A stretch of 64,000 nt of DNA, from contig CAZWFX010000004.1 of the NCBI GenBank assembly GCA_964633425.1, positions 18,517-82,516 of the forward strand. The letters are read 5' to 3'. This document shows, one piece after another, positions 14,403 to 61,004 of the stretch. Under the pieces are notes generated by a model. It ran no database searches, was not told the DNA's origin, and saw only the letters and a program-made list of their open reading frames with translations. The DNA is from an uncultured Candidatus Saccharibacteria bacterium (GTDB lineage: Bacteria; Patescibacteriota; Minisyncoccia; Phycocordibacterales; UBA2100). A program made the translations under genes and the position numbers. Position 1 is the stretch's first letter, and every line of letters starts with the position of its first letter.

Positions 14403-16535
<2,133 letters not shown>

Positions 16536-17057: not shown

Positions 17058-17543
17058 ATGGCGAAAAGGCCGAAGGCAGTAAACGTGTCGAGTAACTCCG
17101 AGGACTGGCGCGAGGCAGCGCTGAGCACATTCGTGCTGTGCATCTTTTCGGTTGATGGCGTGGTTGCGCACTCGGCCGAAGGCATGATCCAGGCGATCAA
17201 GCTCGAAGAGACCGACTCGAGGCGCGACATGGCGTTGCGTGCGCACGGCTATATCGCGAAGACCTACGGAAAATTCGCGAAGAAAAAATATATCTGGTGG
17301 AAAGGCAAACAATATCCGTTCAATTCGCCGTTCCACGCAGCGCTACTCGAGCGGATCATTCGCGCGCGGTTCATCGCCGACGGCAAAGCTCGCGAAGCGC
17401 TGCTTGCAACCGGCAATGCAATCATCACCCACAATGTAGGTGACACGCCGAAGAAGGTTTCCATGAGACGTCGGGCATTTTGCAGACTACTCATGCGTAT
17501 CCGCGCCGAGCTCCGGCGCACGGGCACAGTGCTTCCCGGTTAA
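17058..17543 (+). CDS. Hypothetical protein, possibly NADAR (DUF1768)-like
   Basis: 161 aa. HSAEGMIQAIK and RFIADGKAREALLATGNAIITH loosely resemble NADAR blocks. Weak by-eye call. Confidence 0.4.
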   Translation: MAKRPKAVNVSSNSEDWREAALSTFVLCIFSVDGVVAHSAEGMIQAIKLEETDSRRDMALRAHGYIAKTYGKFAKKKYIWWKGKQYPFNSPFHAALLERIIRARFIADGKAREALLATGNAIITHNVGDTPKKVSMRRRAFCRLLMRIRAELRRTGTVLPG

Positions 17544-17683
17544 TTGATGTACCCAATGTAAAAGGCCGCGATCGCTCGCGGCCTTTGTGTTTGAACTCCA
17601 TGCGGAGAACATTCGTTTTTGCCGCCAGCGATACCATTTGATCACGGTGTTGGTTGTGCGGCTCGCATGGTATGCGAATCGAA

Positions 17684-18406
17684 TCACCCGTGACCAAGCT
17701 CATCATTAAATCGGCGCGGCCGGGGGTTTTTGCGGTAGTTTATGTGCTCTGTAGCACTAAAGTACTCGGCAGAACCTGATGCTTTACCCCCTTCGTAGCC
17801 CGTGCTGAGATCGTGGCTACCAAGCTGCTTCGGACCTCGCTCTGAAACATTGGCGCGAAGCGCACGTTGAACAGCGGGCTGGTTGCTGCTGCGCTCCGCA
17901 CGATCGGAAAATTCCTTGTTCACCTTCCAAAACGCCTCCTGTATGTCTCCCCCGGCTTTGTAAATCTCGTATATCTTGTCGTGCTTTTCGGTCGCGTATA
18001 CACGAGTTAAAAGTTTCTCTAATTTCTTTTCTTGTTTTGCTCCCGCATTGTTTGCTTTTTCGGAGTAATACAGTGCATTCAAAAGCGCCTCTGCTTCTGC
18101 CGAGATGTCTGTAATTTCTTTGCGCGTCCCCTCGCTCACCGGCAACATATATCGCGTGAGACCGGCGTTGTTTTGATCCTGAGATTCTCGGATCTTTGTC
18201 ATCTCTTCCTTGCGGCGGACATTTTTGACTGCAAGGTCGACAAGCTTGGCTCGCGTCATGCCGGCTCGTGCCGCGATTTCATCCAGCGCATCGCCGTCCA
18301 TCTTGAGGATCTGTTCCATCGGCATAGACGGCAGCATCTGCTCCCCTTTTTTGACTTCGCGTTTCGGTGCACGCTCCATGCACAAAGTATAGCTCGCTCG
18401 TAGCAC
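17684..18406 (-). CDS. Hypothetical protein (start uncertain)
   Basis: 240-aa ORF with charged helical composition. Several alternative in-frame starts (e.g. MERAPK...). Confidence 0.5.
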   Translation of the reverse strand: MLRASYTLCMERAPKREVKKGEQMLPSMPMEQILKMDGDALDEIAARAGMTRAKLVDLAVKNVRRKEEMTKIRESQDQNNAGLTRYMLPVSEGTRKEITDISAEAEALLNALYYSEKANNAGAKQEKKLEKLLTRVYATEKHDKIYEIYKAGGDIQEAFWKVNKEFSDRAERSSNQPAVQRALRANVSERGPKQLGSHDLSTGYEGGKASGSAEYFSATEHINYRKNPRPRRFNDELGHG

Positions 18407-18437
18407 AGACTATCGGAACCCTGTTGACGCGCCTCTG

Positions 18438-18851
18438 TTAGCCGAATATATAAAACGCAATCGCCGCAGCCGAGAACCAGCTAAACACCGATACCGCACC
18501 GCTCACAAACAAGGCCTGCTTTTCGCCCGTTCCGAGTGCCGCATAGGGGCGCTCCATCGCATGATCCATGAGTCGCCCGATCAGTAGCGCATTGAGCGCA
18601 AGAATCGTCACGAACAGCATTTTGATATCGAACAAAAGGTTTCCTAGCAGAAACGCGCGCTGCGGGTAAAACAAGATGAACCCAGAAATGACGAGCGACG
18701 CGAGGCCCGCCCAGATCATCATGTGGTAGGTGCGCAGGGTTGTGTGATCGAGCGTGGTTTTGGTGCCACGAAGCCATGAGAGCGCGTCTTTGTCGGCGAT
18801 CGCTGATACGCCAAGCACAAACCCAAATGACAGTATGTGAAGCGGCACCAT
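18438..18851 (-). CDS. Integral membrane protein (about 4 TM)
   Basis: 137-aa hydrophobic ORF. Confidence 0.6.
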   Translation of the reverse strand: MVPLHILSFGFVLGVSAIADKDALSWLRGTKTTLDHTTLRTYHMMIWAGLASLVISGFILFYPQRAFLLGNLLFDIKMLFVTILALNALLIGRLMDHAMERPYAALGTGEKQALFVSGAVSVFSWFSAAAIAFYIFG

Positions 18852-18855
18852 AGCA

Positions 18856-19512
18856 TTAATTACTGAGTACGCCGATCTTCAAACTCGCGAGCTCGTTGGC
18901 CGGCCGCCTGCTTGATCCGTGCTGACCCATGTATGCGCTCGTACCGTCGACACCACAGAGCGATGTGATTGCTGCAGCCCCTCCGGGGTGACGCGAAACG
19001 AACGAGGTTAGATCGTACACATTGCCGTTGATCGCCGAGTAGCAGCTTGCTGCAGTATTGTGCGAAGCAATCTGTGCCATAGAGAATGTACCGGAAGAAG
19101 GAGTAGGTGCAGCGGGTGTAGTGGGTGCGGGCTTCGTTGTTGCAGGCTGCGGCGTGACTGTGGCTGGTGCCCCGCGCGAATCATCATCACCGTCATCGTC
19201 GCCACCTTCGTCATCGCTGTCGTTGTCGCTATCGCCCGAATATGCAGCTCGCACCTTTGCGGCTGCCTGCGACACACCAGCTGAAACGGTATTTTCCTGC
19301 GGCACAGCGGTATCGAGCGACGTTGCGGGCGCACCGGAGACGCCTGCTACATCGGAAACCGACGACTGCTCGCTTGCAGCCGCGTAATCGCCCCCGTGCG
19401 CCTGATATTTCACCTCGGCAAAACCCAAGCCAACGATGGCAAGCATGAGTAATCCGATTGTTCCAAAAAGTATGTTGTTCATATGAAGAAGACGCATCAC
19501 GATGCCCTGCAT
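18856..19512 (-). CDS. Membrane-anchored cytochrome b5-like heme/steroid-binding domain protein
   Basis: N-terminal TM helix and acidic run DSDNDSDDEGGDDDGDDD. C-terminal FSMAQIASHNTAASCYSAINGNVYDLTSFVSRHPGG matches the cyt-b5-like pattern. Confidence 0.7.
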   Translation of the reverse strand: MQGIVMRLLHMNNILFGTIGLLMLAIVGLGFAEVKYQAHGGDYAAASEQSSVSDVAGVSGAPATSLDTAVPQENTVSAGVSQAAAKVRAAYSGDSDNDSDDEGGDDDGDDDSRGAPATVTPQPATTKPAPTTPAAPTPSSGTFSMAQIASHNTAASCYSAINGNVYDLTSFVSRHPGGAAAITSLCGVDGTSAYMGQHGSSRRPANELASLKIGVLSN

Positions 19513-19579
19513 TACCGCCCTATGGGGAGCGAGATGGAAATGCGTCGCTAACGTATGTAGTACACGCGCGAATCCGCTT

Positions 19580-20191
19580 TTATTTCATGTTCCGGATACG
19601 CTGCGCCCGGTTGATGTGGTAGCGCTTCCACCATCGAAACGGATGCGGCAGCCCGATCTGCATGCAGCTGCGATTTATAAACATGATGATCGGCGACAAT
19701 CGGCGCGAGATGGCACCGGAACTGTACGGTGCTTCGCGGAGCATCTGCACCCACTCGGGCGACAGATCGTGCTCGATCGCGCCATCGATGAGTAGGTTCA
19801 TATAGCGAAGCGACGGGTGCAGCCCGTGCGAAACGTTTTTTGTGGCAAAGGTGTGTGCGAGGATCGGCCCGCTTACATCCCCTTCGACGTTTGAGGTAAC
19901 GATGTCGTAGGCGCCGTTGCCTTCCGAAATATCGAGCAGTCGCATTTCTTCGCCGGTGATCTCGTAGACAACGCCCTCTATATAGTGACCGGGTGCCTCT
20001 TCGATATTGGCAAACGACGGTTCGAGCCACGGTATTCCGGGCTGATTGAATACAAGCTTGTAGTCCTTGAGAACAGCACGCTCGATCTTTGTCGGGCGCA
20101 TCTTGCGACGACCCTGAAATACGGTCGAGTTCATATTGCTCCCGTAGCCGAAATACCAGAGCTTTTCTGTCTTTGAAAATTCTCGTCTCAT
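19580..20191 (-). CDS. Gamma-glutamylcyclotransferase (AIG2/GGCT-like) family protein
   Basis: LWYFGYGSNMNSTVFQGRR at the N-terminus is the YGSN(L/M) GGCT-like motif. Confidence 0.7.
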   Translation of the reverse strand: MRREFSKTEKLWYFGYGSNMNSTVFQGRRKMRPTKIERAVLKDYKLVFNQPGIPWLEPSFANIEEAPGHYIEGVVYEITGEEMRLLDISEGNGAYDIVTSNVEGDVSGPILAHTFATKNVSHGLHPSLRYMNLLIDGAIEHDLSPEWVQMLREAPYSSGAISRRLSPIIMFINRSCMQIGLPHPFRWWKRYHINRAQRIRNMK

Positions 20192-20230
20192 CGGTCTTTT
20201 ATACCATCTGCACTAGCGCAGGATATGTGA

Positions 20231-20770
20231 CTAAGCGGTCTTCTTTTTCGGGTAGCCCTTTTTCTCCTTCTTGGGCTTTGCCGCAGCGACCGGCGTTTCG
20301 TCGGCGACAGCTGCGTGCACCGCAGTTGCGAGCGCCGCCTTTTGCGCGGTTGATTCGATCGCGGCAATCAGGCGATCAAGTTTGGTGTTGAGGATGTCGA
20401 GCTGTTTCAAGATCGGAGCGTTGTCGCTCTTCGGGAATTCGGCGCGGGTAACCGGCGCGCTTGCGTATTCACGCTTTTGGAAGCGATCGCCAGCGCGACC
20501 CTGTGAACGAGTGTCGTCGGTCTTTACGAAGCAGTTGCGGCAAAATACCGGCTTGCCGTTGACCGGACGAAACGGTACCTCGCATGCGTCTCCGCACTTG
20601 CTGCAGGTGGCTTTGTAGAACGTGGTGGAGCGTTCGCTGCTCTCAGATCTGCGATCCGACCAATTACCCTTGCCCTTATTGGCGTAGCCCGGCTTTCCGC
20701 CAAACGACGCCTTGTGACCCCCTCCGTTAAATCGCTTGGGCCCGCCCGAGCTTCGCTTGAAATCTGCCAT
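20231..20770 (-). CDS. CxxC-x17-CxxC zinc-ribbon domain protein
   Basis: Trimmed to MADFKRSSGGPKRF. CSKCGDACEVPFRPVNGKPVFCRNC gives CxxC-x17-CxxC. Gly/Lys/Arg-rich N-terminus. Confidence 0.7.
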   Translation of the reverse strand: MADFKRSSGGPKRFNGGGHKASFGGKPGYANKGKGNWSDRRSESSERSTTFYKATCSKCGDACEVPFRPVNGKPVFCRNCFVKTDDTRSQGRAGDRFQKREYASAPVTRAEFPKSDNAPILKQLDILNTKLDRLIAAIESTAQKAALATAVHAAVADETPVAAAKPKKEKKGYPKKKTA

Positions 20771-20921
20771 ATGCGGGGAGTCTGCCACACTATTGACAGA
20801 ATAGCTAGTAAATTGCGAAATTGTCGCGTTTACCCTTTTGCGGACCGCCTGCGCCACACATTGCACGTCGCACTGCACCGTGTAGAGTTCCAGCGGAAAA
20901 CCACAGCGAGGAGTCGGCCCG

Positions 20922-21566
20922 ATGGCCAGTCGTATCGTGCAATTGAACGGAAGCTTTGCCGATCGTCATGCAGCAACTACGGCGATCACGGAAGGATTGT
21001 TTCATTTGCAAAGCGGCAGCAACTACGGCTGCTACACCAGGCGGCAGTGGTGGCCGAATATCGCCGACTGCGATGTGATCACGGTGCGCGGCAAGACGCG
21101 GGTGTTCGAACGAATGCCCGACGAGCCGCGCGACGAGTTCAGCACCGACGGCTACTGGTCGTCGGACTACGTGGTCGTGCTCGAAAAGCCCGACACGCAG
21201 CTGTTCCTGATACCGAATGCCGTACCCACGTATCCGGCAGAAGCAGCAATGGCCCGCGGATGCACCGTGATCATCGCGCTCATGATCGCGTTCTGGGCAC
21301 CGACGGTGGTGGCGCTCTTGTTTAAGCAGGGACCGTGGAGCGTTGTGTACGGGTGCGTAGTGCTTGGCGTAGTGATGCTGACATCGATGTACGAATACCG
21401 GATTCGAACTTTTTTCGCCGGTATCAAAGGCCGGTGGTACGTGTACAACGCGATCCGCGTCGGCAGAGGCACCCGCGAGCACTACAAGGAGCTCGTGGCG
21501 CATTTGTCCGAAGCGGACCACTACACGACCGCCTCTGTGAACAAACAAATTCTTCGATGGCTCTGA
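20922..21566 (+). CDS. Hypothetical membrane protein
   Basis: 214 aa with two central TM helices (CTVIIALMIAFWAPTVVALLF, VVYGCVVLGVVMLTSMY). The opposite-strand ORF 20805..21638 is Arg/His-rich and looks antisense. Confidence 0.5.
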   Translation: MASRIVQLNGSFADRHAATTAITEGLFHLQSGSNYGCYTRRQWWPNIADCDVITVRGKTRVFERMPDEPRDEFSTDGYWSSDYVVVLEKPDTQLFLIPNAVPTYPAEAAMARGCTVIIALMIAFWAPTVVALLFKQGPWSVVYGCVVLGVVMLTSMYEYRIRTFFAGIKGRWYVYNAIRVGRGTREHYKELVAHLSEADHYTTASVNKQILRWL

Positions 21567-21611
21567 GCTCCGCTCACCCATCCCCCAACAGCGCGGTTCC
21601 CCCGCGCTGTT
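21537..21611 (+). repeat. Direct repeat copy A (last 9 codons + stop of 20922..21566 plus terminator hairpin)
   Basis: 75 bp with 4 mismatches to 22254..22328. Contains the hairpin AACAGCGCG-gttcccc-CGCGCTGTT. Confidence 0.85.
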
Positions 21612-21631
21612 TGATTGATAAATCATGATGA

Positions 21632-22240
21632 ATGGCACATAGTTCGTCCATGACTGAGACTGTAGCGACGGAGCCGGAATTCATGACCGTTGCGGAAAAC
21701 CGCTTCTGGATACTGACGATCACTTCGTTCGGGCTGTATGAATTGTATTGGTTCTACAAAAACTGGAAGGCGGTCAAGCTTGCTAGTCGCCCCGATATTT
21801 GGCCGGTGGCACGCGCTTTTTTTGCAGTCTTTTTTGTACACGACCTGTTTAACCTCGTTGCTGACCTCGGGAAAAAACATGGGTATACCAACCTGGCGAA
21901 GCCGGGCACATTGGCAACGATCTACATCGTCTACCTCGTCGTATCGAATCTATGGAACAAAGCGCCACCACTCGGTGCATTGGATTTCCCGATCATGGTG
22001 ATATCTGTGCTCGCTCCGGTTTTTATTATCTGGCCGGTGCAGGCAGCAATCAACGAAATTAACGCCAGTAAGGGCACGTCACAAAAGCTGATACGACCAT
22101 ATACAGGCGGTGAGCTCACGGTCATTGTGATCGGCTCTATCCTCCTGATTTTCTCCACCCTTGGATTTCTTTTACCGGACAGCTGGCTCAACGCGCCCAC
22201 TGATGCGCCAGCAACTGAAATCACTACACCTGTCGCCTAA
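21632..22240 (+). CDS. Polytopic membrane protein, DUF4234-like N-terminus
   Basis: 202 aa. FWILTITSFGLYELYWFYKNWKAV resembles the DUF4234 signature. Bracketed by the 75-bp direct repeats. Confidence 0.55.
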   Translation: MAHSSSMTETVATEPEFMTVAENRFWILTITSFGLYELYWFYKNWKAVKLASRPDIWPVARAFFAVFFVHDLFNLVADLGKKHGYTNLAKPGTLATIYIVYLVVSNLWNKAPPLGALDFPIMVISVLAPVFIIWPVQAAINEINASKGTSQKLIRPYTGGELTVIVIGSILLIFSTLGFLLPDSWLNAPTDAPATEITTPVA

Positions 22241-22253
22241 GCGGGGCACCTCC

Positions 22254-22328
22254 GTGAATAAACAAATTCTACGATGGCTCTGAGCCCCGCTCACCCATCC
22301 CCCAACGGCGCGGTTCCCCCGCGCTGTT
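22254..22328 (+). repeat. Direct repeat copy B (orphan copy of the gene 3' end + terminator hairpin)
   Basis: Still encodes VNKQILRWL-stop, with two synonymous changes relative to copy A. Abuts the AT-rich cassette. Confidence 0.85.
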
Positions 22329-23025
22329 ACATTAAAAATTCCTCAATTTTATCAATGAGGTATCCGAGGTGCCGCACGCGTGAGTTTAATGACATGTATA
22401 CAGCAGCGTAATCAAGTGTTTCGATAGTCCGCAATGCATTTTTTGCGCGCTTTGTGTATTCGTCACCTGCGATTTGATATATATCGTGCAGTGTAGCAGC
22501 GGCTAATGGTATTGATTCCACGTCGTGGGTTGTGACATCAATCCCAGTGGCGGCGCGAATTGTATGTGGCGTTAGTGAAGAATGAATCTTCGCAAAATGG
22601 CTATGCTCCGCAATGAACCACGCTTCCACTTCCATTACAGATATGAGGATTTCGGGCGAAACTGTCTTTGTTGGCACATATTTGCGAGATGCCAGTTTCA
22701 CTTTGTTTAGATCTCTTAAGGCGTGCGGATGTAGGTCGCGTAAACCGAGAATCATTGCAAACTCAGCTTTTACGAGAGATTCGTGCTGATCAATTATCTC
22801 GGACTGCACTCGACTATCGCCGCCGCAGTCTGAGATCAAGGCAAAGTATTTTTGGGTTGAAATTTTGGACTTAGCAGTTATGACAAACGTCGATGCACCG
22901 CTCTTCTTACCAATAAATTTCTTTGTCTCAATTGCTATATTATGCTGTCCAGCAATTTCCAGAAGTAACTTCTCAATAAAGAGTTGCTCAGTTTGTCCCT
23001 CAACAAAAAAAGCGAGCTTTTTCAT
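22327..23025 (-). CDS. DUF4276/Toprim-like protein (RloB/AriB-like candidate nuclease)
   Basis: ORF trimmed to the ATG at 23025 (ATGA overlap with the ATPase stop). Starts MKKLAFFVEGQTEQLFIEKLL; later VMEVEAWF. AT-rich codons. Confidence 0.6.
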   Translation of the reverse strand: MKKLAFFVEGQTEQLFIEKLLLEIAGQHNIAIETKKFIGKKSGASTFVITAKSKISTQKYFALISDCGGDSRVQSEIIDQHESLVKAEFAMILGLRDLHPHALRDLNKVKLASRKYVPTKTVSPEILISVMEVEAWFIAEHSHFAKIHSSLTPHTIRAATGIDVTTHDVESIPLAAATLHDIYQIAGDEYTKRAKNALRTIETLDYAAVYMSLNSRVRHLGYLIDKIEEFLM

Positions 23026-24146
23026 TTCAGTCCAGTCGCAAGAAAATTTTTCGAGAAGAAATCGAAGTTGTTTAGCCCCGTATATGTGAACTCTTGAAAA
23101 ATCTTCTTGGAATTCGACATATTGTATATTTTTGATCCATTTTTTATTCGCTGTATAACATTCCAATATTTCAGATCTACATTGTTCATCACAAAGCGGT
23201 CATTTGTAGACATAATTAGTTGAACTTTGCCAGCTTCTGCCTCTTCAACAAGCAACTTGATTAAACTGGATGATCGATCGAAATCGAGCCCTTCACCTAT
23301 GTCATCAATTAAAATACCGCTTCTTGCTCCAACAACATTAAAGTATTCGATTTGTATAAGTAGTGCGAGCGCACGGAACATTCCCTGCGACATATTGTTT
23401 TGGTCAACAGGTGTACCAATTCCTTTTTCTTTAACATAAAGTCCAAGTAACTTTATTGATGTTTTCAAACTAACTGGAACGGCTACGCCAACGTCCGTCA
23501 AGTGGTATCCCAGCAGTTTCATTTTTGATATGACAGATGATTTGAATGCTTCACCTTTAATCTTCTCGCCCTTTCTGAAAGTCGAAATGACATGCTCGTT
23601 CGCTTCTACGATTGAATCTATGTCGTCTTCGTTTTGAAAAGCTAGCATTGAGTCCTTGCCAAGTGATGTGCCAAAACGAAATAGACTAAGTGACTCTGCC
23701 CACGCGTACAGCTCATTTAGACGCGGATGCTGCACCGCGTCCCGCTTTGTATTTAGCACAATCTCGTTTGTCTCTATCTGAAAATCTATAAGGCCACCTA
23801 CTTTGTCAGCAAATATTTTCCCTCTGCCTGTTTTTGACCTTGAAAAGACAACTTTATTATTGAATTTTAGCTCTTCCTTAGTAACACACGCATTTTCGAT
23901 TCTTAAAACATACTTATACACGTTCGATGCATGCAAAAAGGTCGCTTTATAGTTGGTCGAAGCATACGTAGCTTTCGACTTACCGGACATTAGTCCCGCT
24001 AGGCCTGAGATAACGTTAATTGTTCGAGTTTTCCCATTTGCATTTTTTCCAACAATTAAATTGACATCGCCAAACTCAGTGGCAGGGATTACCCACTCAG
24101 CTTTAGTGCCGGGAAATTGGCTATATTCAAACTCAATCAGCTTCAT
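23022..24146 (-). CDS. ABC-type (AAA_21/AAA_15-like) ATPase
   Basis: 374 aa. Walker A GKNANGKT, signature-like MSQGMF, Walker B GILIDDIGEGLD. Confidence 0.8.
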   Translation of the reverse strand: MKLIEFEYSQFPGTKAEWVIPATEFGDVNLIVGKNANGKTRTINVISGLAGLMSGKSKATYASTNYKATFLHASNVYKYVLRIENACVTKEELKFNNKVVFSRSKTGRGKIFADKVGGLIDFQIETNEIVLNTKRDAVQHPRLNELYAWAESLSLFRFGTSLGKDSMLAFQNEDDIDSIVEANEHVISTFRKGEKIKGEAFKSSVISKMKLLGYHLTDVGVAVPVSLKTSIKLLGLYVKEKGIGTPVDQNNMSQGMFRALALLIQIEYFNVVGARSGILIDDIGEGLDFDRSSSLIKLLVEEAEAGKVQLIMSTNDRFVMNNVDLKYWNVIQRIKNGSKIYNMSNSKKIFQEFTYTGLNNFDFFSKNFLATGLK

Positions 24147-24150
24147 AGAA

Positions 24151-24498
24151 TCAGCGCAATAATTTATCTAGTCTTATGATCCATTTATCAAATTTAGCAG
24201 TTATATAGCCTAATGGCACGGAGAAAAAAGCCGTCAAAATTGCTGTGGCAGTAAATCCACCTAGAGCGGCGGCAGGGTTGCTTAGGGGGATTTCTGGAAA
24301 CCCTGTGCCAAATTTCTGAACAAGGGCTACAACGACCCAAAAAAGGAGTGCGCCCCAAATAAAGCTCCAAGCGGCATACTCAATGTCGTTTAAATATTGG
24401 GCTTGTCTCCCTGCGAAGTGGCGATAGCTCCAAATTAAAGTCGCACCCGGAACGACAAATAATAGATATGCTATGCCAGAAATCGATAAAGACTCCAT
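24151..24498 (-). CDS. Small integral membrane protein (3-4 TM), first gene of the AT-rich cassette
   Basis: 115-aa hydrophobic ORF ending 4 nt before the ATPase start. Confidence 0.55.
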   Translation of the reverse strand: MESLSISGIAYLLFVVPGATLIWSYRHFAGRQAQYLNDIEYAAWSFIWGALLFWVVVALVQKFGTGFPEIPLSNPAAALGGFTATAILTAFFSVPLGYITAKFDKWIIRLDKLLR

Positions 24499-24583
24499 AC
24501 GTCGATGTTACACCCGATTTATGAAGAGTTTACAGACAAAAGAGAGTAAATGTGGCGTAATCATAAGTGTTAAGATTCTGACT

Positions 24584-24811
24584 ATGCCCAAACAAAAACT
24601 GATGGAGGAGCTGGTTAATAGGTACGAGGATTCGGCCATTGCCGGCAAGAGCGCCAAAGACGCAGGCGTGAGCTACAGCCCCGCCAGCAAATGCTTCACC
24701 CTTAAATTCGATGTAGACGAGCACGAGCTGATCGCCAAGTTTCTCGCCGATCACCCGCAAGGCGGCGACGAGCTCGAGCAAAACATCAAAAACTGGATCA
24801 AGAACGGATAA
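24584..24811 (+). CDS. Hypothetical small protein
   Basis: ORF 24473..24811 trimmed to the ATG at 24584 (MPKQKLMEEL...) to avoid overlap with the divergent gene. Confidence 0.4.
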   Translation: MPKQKLMEELVNRYEDSAIAGKSAKDAGVSYSPASKCFTLKFDVDEHELIAKFLADHPQGGDELEQNIKNWIKNG

Positions 24812-25037: not shown

Positions 25038-25047
25038 AAAAATACAT

Positions 25048-25075
25048 ATTCTCACATTCTTGAGAATATGAGAAT
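25048..25075 (-). promoter_or_regulatory. 28-bp palindrome copy 1 (putative operator overlapping a promoter)
   Basis: ATTCTCACATTCT-TG-AGAATATGAGAAT, 13-nt arms with 1 mismatch. Identical to copy 3. Confidence 0.6.
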
Positions 25076-25087
25076 GTTTTGTGCCAA

Positions 25088-25121
25088 CAAAAACAAAACG
25101 GCCGCTCATTGCGAGCGGCCG
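25088..25121 (-). terminator. Rho-independent terminator of 25143..25808
   Basis: Stem CGGCCGCTC / GAGCGGCCG with loop ATTGC, followed on the minus strand by TTTTGTTTTTG. Confidence 0.8.
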
Positions 25122-25142
25122 GTCTGCCTATACGGCGAAAGA

Positions 25143-25808
25143 TCAGGTGTGCGCATACACTCCGAAGTAGCGCTTTGAGCACAGCATCACGATCACGATC
25201 TGCAGCACGAAGAACGACCCGGGAATGATGGCCTCGGATGACGACCAGTTCGGGACTGCAAGAACCCCAAACCCGCCGCCAACGAGGAACAGCATCCACG
25301 GCCAGAACGGTTCACGGTGCGGCTCATTCCACAGCGGGATCACGATTGCGACACCGCCGAGAGCAACCGAGACCACCGAGAGATAGATCGCGTAGTCGGG
25401 ATCGCTCTTGATCCCCCACGCCGCAACGGCAAGGGCAACGATGCCGATGCATGTCGAGTCGAGCTTGTTCCAGCCGGTAAACACATCCGACCAGTGCGCC
25501 TCTGTGCCGTTGAGCCGAGCGATCTTGTAGTTCTTGCGGAATGCGAGCACCACCACAACAACGCCGCCGATCACATACGGGATCATCTGCCAGGCGATGT
25601 TCTCGGCAGATCGCGTGTTGATGGCGTTTGCCACCATTGCCGCAAGGATCGCCATGTCGGACAAGACCCAACTGCCGATCCCCGAGATTGACGGGCGCGT
25701 GTCGTTTTTGCCGCTCACGCGCCACGCCGATACCCAGTACGGGATAAAGGCGATAGTCGAGAACACGACCGCAAGGGCCGCGTATACCTGTAGGCTATTC
25801 AGTTGCAT
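25143..25808 (-). CDS. Polytopic integral membrane protein (about 7 TM)
   Basis: 221-aa hydrophobic ORF; last gene of the palindrome-controlled operon. Confidence 0.65.
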   Translation of the reverse strand: MQLNSLQVYAALAVVFSTIAFIPYWVSAWRVSGKNDTRPSISGIGSWVLSDMAILAAMVANAINTRSAENIAWQMIPYVIGGVVVVVLAFRKNYKIARLNGTEAHWSDVFTGWNKLDSTCIGIVALAVAAWGIKSDPDYAIYLSVVSVALGGVAIVIPLWNEPHREPFWPWMLFLVGGGFGVLAVPNWSSSEAIIPGSFFVLQIVIVMLCSKRYFGVYAHT

Positions 25809-25891
25809 TGCCGAGGCCTCCGTTTACCGAATGGTATGGGAATTTGACTGTTGTTATTATACTACGATTTGTGCCATGCGTCAATTAGCCC

Positions 25892-25925
25892 ACAAAACAA
25901 AACGGCCGCTCATTGCGAGCAGCCG
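25892..25925 (-). terminator. Terminator-like hairpin after 25946..27085 (near-copy of 25088..25121)
   Basis: Same stem-loop with one mismatch, followed by TTTTGTTTTG on the minus strand. Confidence 0.7.
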
Positions 25926-25945
25926 GTCTGCCTAAAGGCGAAAGA

Positions 25946-27085
25946 TCAGTTCTTGTGGAGCGAGGTGTTCAGCTCGACAGGTGCCGACGTCGGGCGCATG
26001 AGCACCTGCCCCGTTTCGCTGTCGCGGATGAACGTCATCCCCGAGTTATTCGAGAGCGAGGCGGCTTTTCGCACGGCGCCGTCGGGGCGCAGGATGCGCA
26101 TGCCCGCGGTGATGTAGAGACCGGCTTCGATGCGACAGTTGTCGCCGAGCGAAATCCCGGTGCCGCCGTTGGCGCCGATCAGGCAATTGCGACCAATTGT
26201 GATCACCTCTTTGCCGCCGCCGGATAGCGTGCCCATGATCGACGCACCGCCGCCGATGGCTGTCCCGCTGCCGACCCACACACCCTGCGAGATCCTGCCC
26301 TCGATCATGTTCGGGCCTTCGGCGCCGGCGTTGTAGTTGCAGAGTCCTTCGTGCATCACGGTCACGCCTTCGCCCAGATACGCGCCGAGCCGCACGCGAC
26401 TCGCATCTGCTATCCGCACACCCGATGGCACCACATAGTCGAGCATCCGCGGAATCTTGTCGCGCGAGTGCACCGAAAACGGACGCCCCATCGTGAGCGC
26501 ATCCATGCGTCGCTCATGCAGATCCGCTTCGCTGATCGGTCCCTCGTTGGTCCATACATTGTTGGGCAGGACCGCAAAGAGATTGTCGAGGTTGATGCCG
26601 TGCGGCCGCACCTTGCGGTGACTGAGCAAATGCAGGCGCAGGTACGCGTCGGGCACGCTCGACGGTCCTTTGTCGCTCTCCTCTTCGGGAATCGCGCACG
26701 CGACAACGCGCATACGCGTGTTGATCGAGTTTCTGAAAGCGGTATTCCGCAACAGCTTTGCCGCCCTGCGAAGCGCATCCACGTTTCCGTGGTGTTTGCC
26801 GTCGCCTTCTGTCCACTCGAAATATTCGAGCATCTCGCGCACGATATCGAGATTGAGCACACCCATCGCCTGGTGATCGCCGGTGTAGTTGAGCACCTTG
26901 GCAAACACGGCGGCGGTGCCGTAGTTCTCGCGATGATTCGGCATCGGGTAGAGCGCATCAAGATACGCTCCGCTACTGTCGACGTTCACGAACCCGATCC
27001 CGAATGCACGCGGGCGTTTGTAGTCGGGCCGCTCCTCGAATTCGGTTACGAACTGTCTGAATGCGATTTGAGTCTGTATCCGCAC
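25946..27085 (-). CDS. Hexapeptide-repeat acyltransferase, tetrahydrodipicolinate N-succinyltransferase (DapD, actinobacterial type)-like
   Basis: 379 aa. [25 protein letters not shown] plus a left-handed beta-helix region ([16 protein letters not shown]...[20 protein letters not shown]). Confidence 0.65.
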
Positions 27086-27907: not shown

Positions 27908-27943
27908 GCATCTATTCTATCGCACGGCACCTGTACACCACAT

Positions 27944-27971
27944 ATTCTCACATTCTTGAGAATGTGAGAAT
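27944..27971 (-). promoter_or_regulatory. 28-bp palindrome copy 2 (perfect), upstream of the FNR-like gene
   Basis: ATTCTCACATTCT-TG-AGAATGTGAGAAT, a perfect inverted repeat lying 36 nt upstream of the start codon at 27907. Confidence 0.65.
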
Positions 27972-27982
27972 TTCTTTCTCCT

Positions 27983-28020
27983 CAAAAACAAATCTCCTCC
28001 GGCCACGTGTGCCGGAGGAG
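27983..28020 (-). terminator. Rho-independent terminator of 28042..28659
   Basis: Stem CTCCTCCGGC / GCCGGAGGAG, followed on the minus strand by ATTTGTTTTTG. Confidence 0.75.
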
Positions 28021-28041
28021 TACATGCATCGAACGATGCAA

Positions 28042-28659
28042 TCAGATAAATCCGTCGAGTTTCAACATTCCTTCCACGATGCCGCGACTGGCATCCCCGA
28101 AATTCGGAATCTGCAGCCGCTCATTCATGTAGGTGCGCAGGAGTGTACCCATGACAGCAGTCTCGCCTCCTGCGTTGTGCATCATTGCGTTGCGGATGCG
28201 AGTCTTCTGCCTTTGGTCGATGTCGAACTCGCCCAGGCGATCATCTGAGAAGTAGTCGCCCACGTACCAGCCCTTCCAGTAGCTGTTATGAGACCAGCCC
28301 TTCTTGTTCGAGGCAAAGCTGTGCGCAGCGTATGACGCCGGCGGGTCGATTCCCGCCGAGAAGCCGATGTCGGGCGTCTTGCTGTAAAAGTGCTGCACAC
28401 ACAGCCGCAGGTTGTTCGCGAGGAGCTGTCGCACACCGACGGTACGCGCTCGCAGGTCCCACAAATGCGACACCTGGACATGCACGTCTCGCACGTGGCC
28501 AAACCGCAAATGGTCGACCGTGAATTCGATGAGCATGTCCGCCTCGCTTCGAAGCCCGAGCGGCGGAATACCGGCAACCGTCTCCACGATATTTCTGTGA
28601 AGACGATCAAACGTATCGCCCGAGTGTTCGGGCAGACAAGAAACCGTGATCTTCGCCAT
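28042..28659 (-). CDS. Hypothetical protein
   Basis: 205-aa ORF with normal composition and no recognised motif. Confidence 0.5.
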   Translation of the reverse strand: MAKITVSCLPEHSGDTFDRLHRNIVETVAGIPPLGLRSEADMLIEFTVDHLRFGHVRDVHVQVSHLWDLRARTVGVRQLLANNLRLCVQHFYSKTPDIGFSAGIDPPASYAAHSFASNKKGWSHNSYWKGWYVGDYFSDDRLGEFDIDQRQKTRIRNAMMHNAGGETAVMGTLLRTYMNERLQIPNFGDASRGIVEGMLKLDGFI

Positions 28660-28780
28660 GGATACCCCCTATAATTGGCCGCGCACACAATACAACAGAT
28701 CCCTCGTCCGTCAACAACGAGGAAAGCCGGATGCAGAGCATCCGGCTTTTGTGATGGGGTGAGCACGCTCACCAAAGAAC

Positions 28781-29158
28781 TTACTGGTACCGAGTCTGCT
28801 CACTCGGAACCCGGCCTTCGCAGCGACCCGTCTGCTCGTTGAAGTCGGTATGCGAGATGCACAGAGTCCGCAGTTCACGCTGCGCGAGCAGGTCGTTCTT
28901 GGGCGCCTTGTAGTAGCCGTTGGAGCATTGCTGCTTCAGCGCCTCCATGCTCCGAGAGCCGGCGCAGGTCGCGATCGGAATGATGCCGAGGTAATTCCAT
29001 GACACTTCCTGACGCTCGGCGTCTTCGCTCCAGAACGACAGCATCACGACTGCGGTTGCCGCACCCTTGCTGAACTGCGCAAACGGCAGCATCGACATGA
29101 GGAGCGCGAACAGCGAGAGGACGAAAAGAAAGTTGCCGCGGTTGAACACTTTGTTCAT
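28781..29158 (-). CDS. Hypothetical secreted/anchored Cys-containing protein
   Basis: Trimmed to MNKVFNRGNFLFVLSLFALLMSMLPFAQF (signal or anchor segment). Confidence 0.45.
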   Translation of the reverse strand: MNKVFNRGNFLFVLSLFALLMSMLPFAQFSKGAATAVVMLSFWSEDAERQEVSWNYLGIIPIATCAGSRSMEALKQQCSNGYYKAPKNDLLAQRELRTLCISHTDFNEQTGRCEGRVPSEQTRYQ

Positions 29159-29254
29159 TCGTGTAGTCCTTTCCAGTTGGATTTCGGGCACTGTGGTTCT
29201 ATTAACATATTACCACATTTATGTGCCTATGTCAATCCACAGCATCGCGTCTGG

Positions 29255-29536
29255 CTAGTCCGGATCCCCGAGGTCCCTACCCCACTGCCAGCGCGGCTTC
29301 TCGCCGTAGGCATAACAAAAACGAATCAAACTCATTGTAAGGAGCGTGATCGGGAGAATGAATGTGAACAACACTTCTCTAAACGTTGAACGCTCATCAA
29401 TCGTGAGCGCGAACGCAACATCTGCGCAAATATACGCGACCACGACAAGCCACCCCTGCCAGGTAACAGGCTCCCAGCCCCATCCGAATCTGCGGCGCTT
29501 GAACCAAATCTCTTTCATGACTCTACGATACACCAC
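29255..29536 (-). CDS. Small membrane protein
   Basis: 93 aa with two hydrophobic segments. Confidence 0.45.
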   Translation of the reverse strand: MVYRRVMKEIWFKRRRFGWGWEPVTWQGWLVVVAYICADVAFALTIDERSTFREVLFTFILPITLLTMSLIRFCYAYGEKPRWQWGRDLGDPD

Positions 29537-38953: not shown

Positions 38954-39028
38954 GGCCCTATCGTCTATCGGCTAGGACACGCCCCTCTCACGGGCGAAAG
39001 CGGGGTTCGATTCCCCGTAGGGTCACCA
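38954..39028 (+). tRNA. tRNA-Glu (anticodon CUC), CCA encoded
   Basis: Manual cloverleaf: acceptor GGCCCTA/TAGGGTC, D arm GTCT..GGAC, anticodon arm CGCCC-CTCTCAC-GGGCG, T arm CGGGG-TTCGATT-CCCCG, discriminator A, then CCA. Confidence 0.85.
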
Positions 39029-40706
39029 TCAGGTTTTTATCGGGTACAAATCCCGAAGATAGTTCGAATACTGGGGACAATTTAGGTGTTCCACTAACTA
39101 TTTCTGGATAGGTAGGCATCTTGTCGAATACCAAACCAAATAGATCTCGTAAAGAGCGCGGATCATCAGGGTTTAGCAACAATTCGGCCGGGTGTTCCAT
39201 TACATATCGAGCGTCTTTGATGAATGCTTTTATGTCATGTCTCGAGATCTGTATTTTGAGTCGGATTTTTTGCGCCTCTTTTATCTTTCGGTCGCTCTCC
39301 TCAATTTCTCTTTCAAGTTTCTCTCTAACCACCGCACTTTTTGTGGAGATAAGTAGCCCCAGTTTTGCATCCTGCTCGGCTTCGAGGTCCGCTATATTTT
39401 GGTGAATATCGCCCGACGCTTTCACAATTTCTTTTTCACGTTGTCGGTATTTGTTCATAAAAACCAACTCGAGTGCATTGAGAATATCGGGCTGGAACTT
39501 CAAACTCGAGACATATCTAGTTACTGCTTTTTCAAAGTCTGCTTTTGGTACTCTGAATCCTTTATGATCTCGCGCACAATGATATCCGGGAAACTTCTTC
39601 CCAGACTTGCCTCGTGATGCACTACCCAAAAAGGGTTTTGAGCAATAAGGACAGAGCAGGAACTTGAATGGATACAAAGGGTTGTTCCTTACTCTTACCT
39701 CACCAGTCTTTGAGGAGCGTTTTGCCAACTCAAGACTTCCGTCAGAAGTTTGTTTCAAAATCAATTTCCCGCGATTCGCTCTGTTCCAAAGATCAATACT
39801 AACCAGTCCGTCATACTGCGCTTTTATGGGCTTGAAGTGGGTCCACAATTCACACATAACTCCCGCATAAATTGGATTTTCAATGTATCTCTGGAATTGC
39901 TTTACTGTAAGCGGTTTGCCGCCTCGTTTTGCGATAATCTGCGTGTGTTCTTTGTTCCATCGATTTCGGATTGGTGATCGAAAACCCATAGCATTTACCT
40001 GCGCAACACACTCTTCATCAGTTAGACCACGCGCACGTAGATCAAACATCGCCTGATAAAATAGTGCTCGATCTGGATCTGGAACCTGAATGGTTTTTTT
40101 CTTTCCCTCGACAAATACTTTCTCGTTTTTGTAACCATCCGAAGGAGCGCGTGTACGATAGCCTTGTTGTGCAAGTCGAATCTCTTGTCCTATCATTCGA
40201 TGGAGAATCGTCGTTACTTCTTGCTTTGATGTGGTAGCCAAAACATTTTCAGTGATTTCACTTGGGAAAAACCTGCTCCAGTCATATTCAAAACCTAGAT
40301 CTTCAAGAGTATTTATTGATGGCTGTATAACACCGAGGGTATCAATCATCACTACTCCGTATTTCAGAAGTTCCTTTTTCATCCGATCATACTCACCAGT
40401 ACCAGCACGAGTGAATCTATCTATCGACTTGAATACATAAAAGTTTACGAGCCCAGGATTTTCTTTTATGAACGAAAGTACTTCTTCAAAATCATCACGA
40501 TTAGTTTTTCGTCCAGAAATGGCTCTACCCCATACTTTTCCATGCGGATCATCTTTCGTCTGTGGAACAATAGTCCATCCTCTATCAGATGCGAATCTGC
40601 GTAGACTTTCTTCCTGTCGTTCCAAACTCTCTCCCTCTGATGATTGTTTGAGGGAACTAACTCGACATTGAACTACGCATTTTTTATTTTGTGATGATAG
40701 GTTCAT
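38988..40706 (-). CDS. Large serine recombinase (integrase)
   Basis: 572 aa. Catalytic region CVVQCRVSSLKQSSEGESLERQ, recombinase domain, zinc ribbon CPYCSKPF...YHCARDH, coiled coil. The last ~13 codons are antisense to tRNA-Glu. Confidence 0.85.
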   Translation of the reverse strand: MNLSSQNKKCVVQCRVSSLKQSSEGESLERQEESLRRFASDRGWTIVPQTKDDPHGKVWGRAISGRKTNRDDFEEVLSFIKENPGLVNFYVFKSIDRFTRAGTGEYDRMKKELLKYGVVMIDTLGVIQPSINTLEDLGFEYDWSRFFPSEITENVLATTSKQEVTTILHRMIGQEIRLAQQGYRTRAPSDGYKNEKVFVEGKKKTIQVPDPDRALFYQAMFDLRARGLTDEECVAQVNAMGFRSPIRNRWNKEHTQIIAKRGGKPLTVKQFQRYIENPIYAGVMCELWTHFKPIKAQYDGLVSIDLWNRANRGKLILKQTSDGSLELAKRSSKTGEVRVRNNPLYPFKFLLCPYCSKPFLGSASRGKSGKKFPGYHCARDHKGFRVPKADFEKAVTRYVSSLKFQPDILNALELVFMNKYRQREKEIVKASGDIHQNIADLEAEQDAKLGLLISTKSAVVREKLEREIEESDRKIKEAQKIRLKIQISRHDIKAFIKDARYVMEHPAELLLNPDDPRSLRDLFGLVFDKMPTYPEIVSGTPKLSPVFELSSGFVPDKNLMVTLRGIEPRFRP

Positions 40707-40923
40707 ATGCTTGATCGTCTTTTACAGTATGCGCTTTACGATTTATTTTTTCCAGCCACATATCAAAGTATTTATCTGCAATTCCATCAAGTGCAATAAG
40801 CATCCGGCGTAATTGTTCGTCGGTGTATTTATTTGCTGATGGCCCGAGTGCTTTTTTGAACTCCTCGAACGATGTGGCTGTTTGTTGTATTTCCGGCTCC
40901 ATTGTGGAGCGGATCCAGTACAA
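40684..40923 (-). CDS. Small hypothetical protein upstream of the integrase
   Basis: 79-aa ORF overlapping the integrase start by 23 nt. Could start at the internal MEPEIQQ. Confidence 0.35.
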   Translation of the reverse strand: MYWIRSTMEPEIQQTATSFEEFKKALGPSANKYTDEQLRRMLIALDGIADKYFDMWLEKINRKAHTVKDDQAYEPIITK

Positions 40924-41305
40924 CTAAAAAGGACCCGCAAAGTCCTTCCGAGAAACATATCGGAAGAAATCGCGAGTCCTTTTTCAAGGAGACTCTGGGG
41001 GCGGCGATAACGTTCAAAACCCCATTTATTTAGTTGTGCATAAATTGTATCAAACTTTTTTCTTTTGCAACAATGGCAATTTCCACAATTTTTCGCTATC
41101 ATTGAAGGACAACCGAATATCGGCCCCTTGAGGGCGGGACCTAACCCCGAAAGAGAAATCTATCGGATATGGTCTGAAAGTCGATCAAGCATAGAAAACC
41201 CGTCATGGGGTTGCTTGATCGCCGTATGGGGAAACCTGTACGAGAGGGTTCGCCCTCTACCCGTGGCGGGTTTTCTGTTGCCCGCCATAGGTTTTATTAG
41301 CAAGG

Positions 41306-41755
41306 TTGCTAGCGATCAAGCCAACCATGTTCAAACAAACATACAAACACGATGTTACTTTGCCCGGACGCGGGCTTTACTGGGTATTAGGTGCCATAGT
41401 CGCAGTTCTGGGTTTACTAGCCCTCACAGGCGCGTATTTTGCGAACACGGCCCAAGACTACGATGGGTATACCAAGCCGAAAGCGCAAGAAACGGCAATT
41501 ACCCCAGAAAAGATGCAGAACGGGGTTAGTGCGATGGCAGATTTTATGGTGAAAGATGGGAATGTTGTTGGCCTACGAATGTGGGCGCGATCCCTCGGTG
41601 TTTCTAGTCCGGAGTTCTCAAGTGCCGCAACACTTCGAGAGGAGATCCGTCGTGCCTCAAATGACTTTGCGATCTATCGAGACAAAAACGAGTTATTGAA
41701 ATTGATGCAGTTACTGGGTAATAACGATGCAATTCTCAACGAGGTCGTGAGGTAA
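41306..41755 (+). CDS. Hypothetical membrane-anchored protein
   Basis: 149 aa with one TM helix (GLYWVLGAIVAVLGLLALTGAYF). Confidence 0.45.
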   Translation: MLAIKPTMFKQTYKHDVTLPGRGLYWVLGAIVAVLGLLALTGAYFANTAQDYDGYTKPKAQETAITPEKMQNGVSAMADFMVKDGNVVGLRMWARSLGVSSPEFSSAATLREEIRRASNDFAIYRDKNELLKLMQLLGNNDAILNEVVR

Positions 41756-41756
41756 C

Positions 41757-44033: not shown

Positions 44034-44034
44034 G

Positions 44035-45552: not shown

Positions 45553-45554
45553 AG

Positions 45555-45731: not shown

Positions 45732-45791
45732 ACAGAAATGATACTTTACTTTTGTTGACATTACAATCACCACAGGAGTAACATTTCCACT

Positions 45792-47694: not shown

Positions 47695-47883
47695 GTTCGT
47701 GTTTATTCGTGGTTTTGCTCGCTCGCTACACTACGTTCCATACCCTGATAGGTAATGTCTTTTGTCTCGATTGATTCTGAAAAATGGCTAAACCACATGC
47801 GTTTGTGATAGCATTAGATAACTCGGATTGAGGGTTTGGAACACCGTTTTCCATTTCAAAACTAGGTTTTCTATGGTGTTCCA

Positions 47884-51636: not shown

Positions 51637-51644
51637 CCGTACAT

Positions 51645-60967: not shown

Positions 60968-61004
60968 GTAACGCGGACCATCGTATCAAAACTTATCGCG
61001 AACG

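Follow-up and report, generated by a model that had tools for sequence, protein, structure and literature searches.

How did the end of one gene, terminator included, come to stand a second time behind its neighbour? This question is raised by a locus of a Candidatus Saccharibacteria chromosome where, within the window (the whole stretch of 64,000 nt that was analysed), a direct repeat brackets a single gene and borders an AT-rich cassette. The preliminary description had read this arrangement as the footprint of a site-specific insertion that carried or regenerated the 3' end of its target gene, at a site acting as an integration hotspot for accessory DNA. The features around the repeat are the following:

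20922 to 21566, forward strand: gene A, a 214-aa membrane protein of no known family, conserved left flank of the hotspot
21532 to 21611, forward strand: repeat copy A, which takes in the final 11 codons of gene A, then a 20-nt spacer and the hairpin
21587 to 21611, forward strand: hairpin A, terminator-like, AACAGCGCGG-TTCCC-CCGCGCTGTT
21632 to 22240, forward strand: gene X, encoding a DUF4234-like membrane protein, sole gene enclosed by the repeats
22241 to 22248, no strand: 8-nt gap separating the X stop codon from copy B, the putative illegitimate (non-homologous) joint
22249 to 22328, forward strand: repeat copy B, 33 nt of an orphan gene-A 3' end, with spacer and hairpin

A repeat finder delimited a direct repeat of 80 nt (21532-21611 and 22249-22328) with five mismatches, at positions 21536, 21542, 21554, 21569 and 21590 in copy A numbering. 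The 75-bp repeat with four mismatches of the preliminary description is the core of this pair. The two copies diverge by approximately 6%; the mismatches are scattered along the whole length, and the longest identical run is 21 nt. As had been claimed, copy A is the genuine end of a gene: the open reading frame of gene A ends in SVNKQILRWL-stop, and this C-terminus is conserved in the homologues, which form six protein clusters only (6/6). Copy B has no gene attached, yet codon comparison confirmed that the same reading is intact in it (SVNKQILRWL-stop), with all three differences in the former coding part being synonymous (TCT/TCC, AAC/AAT and CTT/CTA). The states specific to copy B are AAT, CTA and AACGG (sequences GTGAATAAACAAATTCTACGATGG and AACGGCGCGG). 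Gene A itself matched nothing in Pfam and NCBIfam, and a protein-level alignment scan of genome contigs returned the known relative and one homologue of 32% identity in an unrelated context, and nothing else.

A perfect stem of 10 bp closing a loop of 5 nt makes up the 25-nt hairpin. Hairpin A folds at -24.5 kcal/mol (z = -6.2) and hairpin B at -21.9 kcal/mol with one G-U pair, so that the earlier reading of the stem change in copy B as a wobble preserving the hairpin was correct. The variable stem pair is A-U in copy A and in the relative L002, G-U in copy B and G-C in the relative L014, whose hairpin differs from that of the window by two compensatory pairs.

The source being a metagenome-assembled genome, the doubled gene end might be an artefact of assembly or strain mixture, two alleles from the same sample having been joined in error. 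A Logan contig that belongs to a separate k-mer assembly (SRR12487045_482892, 3075 bp), however, matches window positions 21539-24613 at 100% identity, from 73 nt of copy A across X, copy B and the cassette into the 75-aa gene beyond. The same contig begins 30 nt before a strain-specific SNP, which suggests that a second strain was present in the sample and would favour the artefact. Against it, a k=31 graph (k being assumed) could not have mis-joined the copies, because they share no identical run longer than 21 nt. An artefact is therefore very improbable.

The repeat is not a dispersed element either, a possibility that the preliminary description had raised. Searching the 75-mer with up to three mismatches returned the query itself as sole match, and none of 100 shuffles gave a match. 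In the 64-kb window, no additional 75-mer and no third copy of the 80-mer were found by the whole-window repeat scan; relatives carry one orthologous 80-mer copy each, against two in the window. Viral contigs yielded no match to the hairpin, X or the ATPase, and neither X nor the 80-mer recurred elsewhere among the sequences searched. A REP or MITE-like repeat is thus not indicated (two copies in the window, one per relative, none in viral contigs). A DNA scan for hairpin plus spacer in a metagenome contig collection also gave 0 matches, this collection evidently being without the relevant samples (the JGI contigs of the relatives).

Exactly one gene lies between the copies, in agreement with the single DUF4234-like gene described before. 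X measures 202 aa from its first ATG and was called as 196 aa from position 21650. It has no Pfam match of its own; several of its homologues carry PF14018 (DUF4234), and X shares their YELYWFYKNW motif. Gene X is known solely from the window strain. Kinship of X with gene A (as a paralogue), m221 or m115 was also considered and discarded, BLASTP having given nothing. In the gap between X and copy B, homology to the left of 22249 through a shared 8-mer, CACTACAC, was insignificant (p = 0.11), and short-word BLAST of the X tail, the X leader and the right end of the cassette found no source.

Beyond copy B, the following features lead to the right flank:

22327 to 23025, reverse strand: DUF4276-like gene, 232 aa, last gene of the AT-rich operon
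23022 to 24146, reverse strand: AAA_21 (ABC-type) ATPase, 374 aa, of the AbiLi / AriA / HEC-01A kind
24151 to 24498, reverse strand: m115, a 115-aa membrane protein, first gene of the AT-rich operon, GC 0.44
24584 to 24811, forward strand: s75, a 75-aa gene, conserved right flank, at whose ATG homology returns

The AT-rich cassette starts right after copy B, as had been noted. GC content drops from about 0.55 to 0.30-0.45 from 22329 onward, and the DUF4276-like stop codon (22327-22329, reverse strand) shares 2 nt with the end of copy B. The ATPase matched Pfam AAA_21 (8.8e-8) and the PADLOC models AbiLi (9e-20), AriA (2.7e-15) and HEC-01A (2e-9). The DUF4276-like gene, also called as a gene in L015, matched PADLOC HEC-01B (4.5e-8) and Pfam DUF4276 at E = 1e-4, which is below the curated cut-off. 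Judging from these matches, the operon of ATPase and DUF4276-like gene resembles a PADLOC HEC-01-like or AbiL-like module. The ATPase is one of a large family, in which its nearest relative (L028, 57% identical, in an unrelated context) is likewise followed by a 232-aa DUF4276 gene with the same 4-nt overlap. No closer donor of the cassette was found, and exact-match queries with X, with the DUF4276-like protein and with the gene A of the window returned nothing or just the one Logan contig. GC3 defines three compositional classes: core genes (0.67-0.78), X (0.59, intermediate) and cassette (0.39). These classes point to separate acquisitions of X and of the cassette.

Comparison with relatives showed that the segment from the hairpin (21611) to the s75 ATG (24584) is a strain-variable slot in the Candidatus Saccharibacteria chromosome. 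Homology between the window and L002-type sequences covers 18418-21612, breaks at the 3' edge of the hairpin and resumes at 24584. In close relatives, whose gene A is 98% identical at the protein level, the 80-mer is present in a single copy and the slot holds IetA and IetS (PADLOC IetS 1e-62, IetA 1.5e-44). Approximately 20 contigs of a close Candidatus Saccharibacteria relative carry this allele. L008 and L016 show the IetS allele on short contigs; in L002, the IetS stop codon lies 8 nt past the hairpin. L014, from a more distant relative, is an empty site, which runs from the gene A stop codon over the hairpin and about 50 nt more to the s75 ATG. L065 has yet another sequence upstream of s75. 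Synteny of the left flank (Cyt-b5, GGACT, a zinc-finger gene and gene A) extends over L001-L011, L013, L014 and L018-L027 (the genes to the left of gene A being syntenic in L001-L014), and that of the right flank (s75, m221 and DapD) over L001-L011 and L018-L027. L017 was discarded as a further allele, being a chimera: the contig starts with a palindrome and includes a fragment resembling a terminase. A DapD-anchored scan of metagenome contigs for more alleles returned only loci of at most 57% identity without synteny. With its fixed edges, its alternative IetAS cargo, the empty L014 site and the different L065 sequence, the locus is indeed a hotspot for accessory DNA, which upholds that part of the preliminary description.

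The flanks of the slot show clear homologous-recombination mosaicism, tracts of 100% identity alternating with tracts of 85-93% on both sides. On the left, window and L002 display zero differences over 797 nt (20493-21289), followed by an arm of a different allele:

21290 to 21611, forward strand: allele-specific left arm, the last 322 nt of gene A plus the terminator, with 20 substitutions and a 3-nt indel relative to the L002-type

In this arm, divergence from the L002-type strains is about 7%, and the change near 21290 marks a sharp recombination breakpoint inside gene A.

Site-specific integration would explain the repeat if a small circular element bearing X, with an attP similar to the gene-A end, had entered an attB made of the gene-A 3' end plus hairpin, copy A becoming attL and copy B attR, with the recombinase encoded elsewhere. 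The repeats do include the 3' end of the target gene, and the one gene that they enclose fits closely between them, about 20 nt from the left copy and 8 nt from the right; relatives have only one copy, and differences that preserve function would also suit an element-borne copy needing to restore the gene. A large serine recombinase is encoded 17 kb away; it is, however, part of a separate island beside tRNA-Glu. A recombinase domain is lacking in gene A, in X and in all three operon genes (DUF4276-like, AAA_21 and m115); a 717-bp element has no known means of self-movement, and nothing points to a recombinase acting in trans. Only the 636-bp X module is bracketed by repeats, whereas neither of the two defence cassettes at the same edge is. 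Moreover, the confinement of X and the 80-mer to this strain among the sequences searched, the scattered mismatches with no identical run above 21 nt, and a hairpin whose perfect 10-bp stem and 5-nt loop are not attC-shaped all argue against integration. Finally, the slot boundaries coincide with the ends of conserved flanks that are themselves mosaic by homologous recombination. A site-specific insertion, the central proposal of the preliminary description, is thus unsupported, and we consider it unlikely.

The repeat might also have arisen in situ, by an 80-bp target duplication upon insertion of X (through a staggered break or template switching) or, as a variant, by a tandem duplication with later replacement of one cargo; in both cases the copies would have diverged in place. 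Two states shared by copies A and B relative to L002, a shorter spacer and CCCCAAC, fit such an origin. So does a second repeat pair 3.5 kb away (25083-25146 and 25889-25949), again a stop codon plus terminator, which brackets the single gene m221 and suggests that local terminator duplication recurs in the lineage. This second pair evolves in concert, the same inverted loop being found in both copies in each genome; it is kept homogeneous within each genome by conversion, whereas A and B are not. The divergence between A and B (6%) is comparable to the 7% that separates window and L002-type for the same region. In addition, three synonymous differences and a stem change preserving pairing have a chance of about 0.01-0.02 under neutral decay, and we know of no enzyme that makes 80-nt staggered cuts. 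An in-situ duplication is consequently quite improbable.

These same observations fit better with copy B having once been the end of a working gene. With L002 as outgroup, the changes on the B lineage are two synonymous substitutions and one G-U stem change (neutral-decay chance about 0.01-0.02). Copy B would accordingly appear to have diverged under selection, a selection-like pattern drawn from three to five substitutions and a single outgroup. As all three coding differences are synonymous, copy B seems to derive from the end of a second, functional gene-A allele, and its distance from A (about 6%), set beside the 7% between the gene-A ends of window and L002, makes it fit as a third allele. 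Each of the two window modules, X and the AT-rich operon, sits directly after one hairpin copy. Since the IetS and DUF4276 cassettes abut the hairpin alike, copy B plus cassette looks like a normal hotspot allele minus gene A.

The best reading is therefore, in our view, that two hotspot alleles were stacked through one illegitimate joint and that the repeat is a recombination scar, a proposition on which we hold the balance to be about even. The slot cargo, mostly anti-phage modules, would be swapped between strains by homologous recombination in the conserved flanks, probably after natural transformation. In the normal configuration, gene A and its hairpin would be followed by a cassette, flush with the 3' edge of the hairpin, and then by the 75-aa gene. 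The window strain would instead have combined two cargo modules of different sources, X and the AAA_21/DUF4276 operon. Copy B would be the leftover 3' end and hairpin of a second gene-A allele, diverged by about 6%, which in an earlier genome would have directly adjoined the AAA_21/DUF4276 cassette. A non-homologous joint at 22241-22248 may have fused a segment of gene A, hairpin and X to one of 33 nt of gene A, hairpin, defence operon and 75-aa gene, the other end probably being resolved by homologous recombination. This would correspond to homology-facilitated illegitimate recombination leaving an 80-bp direct repeat. The order of events, the illegitimate joint and the part played by transformation are what we infer from this arrangement. 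Because A and B have stayed unhomogenised next to a homogenised pair, their juxtaposition may be fairly recent. Copy B may now stand as a hairpin downstream of X, facing the convergent defence operon.

Saccharibacteria are naturally competent (PMC10187176, preprint of PMC10633639), and in homology-facilitated illegitimate recombination linear DNA is attached through homology at one end, the joint at the other being illegitimate (PMC3240628). Several observations count against the stacking of two alleles. In accessible collections, neither of the parental alleles was found, that is, a B-type gene A, hairpin and AAA_21/DUF4276 arrangement without X, or gene A, hairpin, X and s75. X and the cassette are confined to the window strain among the sequences searched, and a joint only 8 nt past the X stop codon is tidier than one would expect of illegitimate joining at random. 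The shorter spacer and CCCCAAC common to A and B also count against it, as an in-situ duplication would explain them too.

Two units within 4.5 kb (gene A/X and DapD/m221) have the same layout, in which a stop codon and terminator are followed by one gene for a membrane protein of about 200 aa and by a repeat of stop codon and terminator. Hairpin-terminated gene ends in this Saccharibacteria lineage could accordingly be anchors for integrase-independent capture of single-gene cassettes, an idea that we regard as decidedly improbable. If true, it would be a recurrent route of gene addition in ultra-small genomes, driven by host recombination and loosely resembling an integron array.

Altogether, the locus documents to the base a compact defence hotspot in Candidatus Saccharibacteria (CPR/Patescibacteria), with empty, IetAS and AAA_21/DUF4276 alleles, in a group in which the mechanics of gene flow are barely studied. 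The 80-bp scar would be a rare record of hotspot alleles being combined rather than swapped. The fixed edges and mosaic flanks suggest that the slot could be used as a neutral insertion site in genetically tractable Saccharibacteria. Current ideas on defence islands are not overturned: this is a fresh example of a known phenomenon, of modest interest.

As in integrase islands at gene 3' ends (tRNA/tmRNA, attL/attR), direct repeats with the 3' end of the target bracket an insert and the gene is intact. Here, however, an integrase is lacking, the repeats enclose one gene of 0.6 kb, and neighbouring cassettes at the same edge have no repeats. A true integrase-type island, with tRNA-Glu and a serine recombinase, does occur elsewhere in the window (about 38954-48000); this recombinase was the only one found.

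Integron cassettes share with the locus a single promoter-proximal gene followed by a hairpin-containing repeat, and the layout of repeat, gene, repeat and cargo. An attC site has the architecture R''-L''...L'-R' with RYYYAAC/GTTRRRY cores and extrahelical bases, and measures at least about 57 nt. The present element is a perfect 25-nt stem-loop in a repeat that includes coding sequence of the upstream gene, and the bases flanking the hairpin (CCCCAAC and GTTTGAT/GTTACAT) do not fit the attC core consensus. Neither IntI nor attI was found among the selected window ORFs scanned. An attC reading was rejected on the hairpin architecture (25 nt, perfect 10-bp stem, 5-nt loop).

Homology-facilitated illegitimate recombination in natural transformation is known from work on Acinetobacter and Streptococcus. 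It predicts one homologous and one non-homologous junction (PMC3240628), and a stub of donor flank may ride in with foreign cargo in a lineage that is competent (PMC10187176/PMC10633639). The present case differs in being known from sequence alone, and in that we infer the joint.

Finally, in Pseudomonas, Vibrio and E. coli, homologous recombination in the flanks is known to exchange defence islands or hotspots that lie between conserved core genes. The Saccharibacteria locus has the same fixed core flanks, mutually exclusive cargo (IetAS versus AAA_21/DUF4276), an empty allele, mosaic flanks and no integrase. It differs from these hotspots in its reduced genome, in a slot of only about 3 kb, and in one allele whose two cargo modules are kept apart by an internal 80-bp left-flank duplicate.

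A two-copy direct repeat was detected by a repeat finder in the window, at 21532-21611 and 22249-22328, with a spacing of 717 bp. Base-by-base comparison showed that the 80-nt copies differ at five positions (21536, 21542, 21554, 21569 and 21590), four of which lie in the 75-nt core noted in the preliminary description. The repeat scan over the whole window gave no third copy of the 80-mer, and the window contained no other near match to the 75-mer (0 in 100 shuffles). The copies and the genes around them are as follows.

21532-21611, plus strand: copy A, comprising the last 11 codons of gene A (ORF 20922-21566; SVNKQILRWL*), a 20-nt spacer and a hairpin with a 10-bp stem
21632-22240, plus strand: X, a DUF4234-like gene, the sole gene between the copies
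22249-22328, plus strand: copy B, encoding the same SVNKQILRWL* peptide, with only synonymous coding differences from copy A
22327-23025, minus strand: DUF4276-like protein (HEC-01B, 4.5e-8)
23022-24146, minus strand: AAA_21 ATPase (PADLOC AbiLi 9e-20, AriA 2.7e-15, HEC-01A 2e-9)
24151-24498, minus strand: 115-aa membrane protein of the same operon

The hairpin of copy B carries a single stem change, which yields a G-U pair. Window 21539-24613 is matched at 100% identity by an independent Logan contig (SRR12487045), which essentially excludes an assembly artefact; the repeat first described stands, extended to 80 nt.

GC falls directly past copy B, where the AT-rich cassette, a three-gene minus-strand operon, begins; the stop codon of its DUF4276-like gene shares 2 nt with the repeat end. 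The window allele contains two modules of different composition (GC3 of 0.59 for X and 0.39 for the defence operon, with 0.67-0.78 for core genes), each beginning directly after one hairpin copy. The cassette ATPase belongs to a very large family, and its nearest relative (57% identical) also adjoins a DUF4276 gene (232 aa), in an otherwise unrelated context. The gene A family is very small: 5.8 billion proteins yielded just six clusters, each of which keeps the C-terminal ...ILRW[LI]. X itself gave no Pfam match; its homologues, at most 40% identical, in many cases contain PF14018/DUF4234, and the YELYWFYKNW motif is common to them and X. A C-terminal extension of X of about 17 aa (WLNAPTDAPATEITTPVA, 22187-22240), absent from DUF4234-like homologues, ends 8 nt before copy B. 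X may originally have ended at another stop codon.

Relatives whose gene A protein is 98% identical (among them NCBI record CAZELA010000001.1 and contigs from several JGI samples and Logan runs) are syntenic with window 18418-21612, a stretch that stops precisely where hairpin A ends on its 3' side. Collinearity is restored from 24584 on, at the start codon (ATG) of a plus-strand 75-aa gene. Between these edges they carry a 350-aa AAA protein matching IetA (1.5e-44) and a 746-aa S8 peptidase matching IetS (1e-62), and the 80-mer is present once. Contigs found through an identical 75-aa protein showed the same IetA/IetS allele wherever their upstream side was visible. In L065, a contig from a lineage with a slightly different 75-aa protein, an unrelated AT-rich plus-strand gene ends 13 nt before that ATG. 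Contig L014 (gene A 57% identical) provided the empty site sought among relatives: the gene A stop codon is followed by the hairpin, about 50 nt and the 75-aa gene's ATG. Its hairpin differs from that of the window by two compensatory pair changes, indicating that the structure is under selection. Contig L013 has a larger rearranged region downstream of gene A. Synteny edges, alternative cargo and the empty site thus show that the locus is a true hotspot, as first proposed, with the hairpin as left edge and the start codon of the 75-aa gene as right edge. Two further contigs were irregular: L010 (1963-3787) has a truncated IetS gene fused to SmpB, a deletion variant or misassembly, and L017 (1-386, 2050-3087) is chimeric: its beginning is palindromic, and a fragment resembling a terminase is fused into its 75-aa gene.

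Compared with L002, which represents the close relatives, the window flanks form a mosaic in which tracts of 100% identity alternate with tracts of 85-93%. On the left, the two sequences agree at all 797 nt of 20493-21289 and then differ by 20 substitutions and a 3-nt indel within 21290-21611. This switch near 21290 marks a breakpoint of recombination within gene A; every cargo allele thus carries along its own few hundred flank bases. No recombinase domain was found among the genes of the variable segment; the one recombinase found in the window (38988-40706) lies in a separate AT-rich island adjoining tRNA-Glu. Given these mosaic flanks, the breakpoint, the lack of a recombinase in the segment and the natural competence described in Saccharibacteria, the group of the present bacterium (in PMC10187176, preprint of PMC10633639), the evidence for the whole hotspot favours homologous recombination in the conserved flanks over any other mechanism. 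The site-specific insertion originally proposed was not borne out. Integration of X as a mini-element between its repeats is unlikely, since it has neither a recombinase nor a recurrence of the element in its favour and leaves unexplained why neither defence cassette has bracketing repeats.

The tRNA-Glu island itself (38954 to about 48000, GC 0.41-0.46) also encodes an HTH protein and looks like a classical integrase-borne island with a type III restriction-modification system.

38954-39028: tRNA-Glu, where the island begins
38988-40706, minus strand: large serine recombinase
41138-41258: LOOT RNA (Rfam match, 71.6 bits)
41757-44033: ResIII helicase
44035-45552: N6_N4 DNA methylase

As for copy B, its junction with the cassette mirrors the normal L002 arrangement: the IetS stop lies 8 nt past the hairpin in L002, and the DUF4276 stop overlaps the hairpin of copy B in the window. 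With L002 as sole outgroup, the changes in the B lineage comprise two synonymous substitutions and a single stem substitution that keeps a wobble pair, a pattern with a probability of about 0.01-0.02 under neutral decay (three changes, one outgroup). At the variable stem pair, copy A and L002 have A-U, copy B has G-U and L014 has G-C. The A/B differences, whose coding part is synonymous in 3/3 cases, look selected, and the copies are about 6% apart, close to the 7% or so between the gene A ends of the window and L002. For these reasons, we read copy B as the probable end of a second functional gene A allele, formerly directly beside the AAA_21/DUF4276 cassette. Duplication in situ would account for two states common to copies A and B against L002, but fits poorly with selection-like differences and is quite improbable, also because the A/B pair is unhomogenised although a neighbouring repeat pair is homogenised.

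That second pair follows two minus-strand genes.

25143-25808, minus strand: 221-aa membrane gene, followed by a unit of about 60 nt
25946-27085, minus strand: DapD, followed by the same unit

The unit, at 25083-25146 and 25889-25949 in the window and at 14605-14663 and 15408-15466 in L002, starts at the stop codon of the respective gene (C-TGA) and includes a strong terminator. Within L002 the two copies match at 59/59 positions. In the window, both copies carry a GCAAT loop in their hairpin; in L002, both carry ATTAC, the reverse complement of GCAAT save one base. Agreement within each genome and difference between them indicate that the copies evolve in concert or undergo gene conversion, and that the loop was inverted. 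No empty site for this pair was found among the relatives compared. The second pair hints at recurrent local duplication of terminators around single genes in the lineage.

Several other features were observed. A palindromic motif of about 32 nt, CATATTCTCACATTCTTGAGAAT(A/G)TGAGAATG, occurs in the window (25044-25075, 27940-27971, 51641-51672), L013 (9878-9918, 11475-11515, 14259-14299), L014 (6968-6994), L002 (about 14563-14594) and L065 (691-723). Intergenic and adjoining gene starts or ends, it is nearly identical across genomes in DNA only 73-82% identical, and could be an operator, promoter or bidirectional terminator. One copy marks the left end of a 1.35-kb segment (27908-29256) of normal GC with two function-unassigned genes (205 and 136 aa), where L002 has only 7 nt (17425-17431); no flanking direct repeat was visible. 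Another segment also varies between strains (window 17592-18417, L002 5599-7499): its 240-aa protein (17684-18406) is just 54% identical to the L002 counterpart, against 92-99% for neighbouring genes. Finally, a 167-nt repeat (60749-60915 and 62882-63048, 96% identity) spans the 3' portions of two tRNA-Ala genes (GGC, CGC) together with the sequence downstream of each, with four copies of a terminator-like 38-mer within 60714-63017; this is a tRNA cluster duplication.

Returning to the hotspot, the reading in which a strain-variable slot is exchanged by flank homologous recombination, and the repeat represents two alleles stacked through one illegitimate joint, has in our judgement about an even chance of being correct. 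The allele formed by copy B and the cassette would have been fused to a gene A-hairpin-X allele through one non-homologous joint, putatively the 8 nt at 22241-22248, the other side being resolved by homologous recombination. The stub and cassette could have been joined on the right of X, or X on the left of a pre-existing cassette allele; both orders would fit equally well. Such a pattern corresponds to homology-facilitated illegitimate recombination as presented in PMC3240628. Altogether, the feature is a defence hotspot between core genes with a recombination scar, a further instance of an established type, in the under-studied setting of a CPR bacterium.
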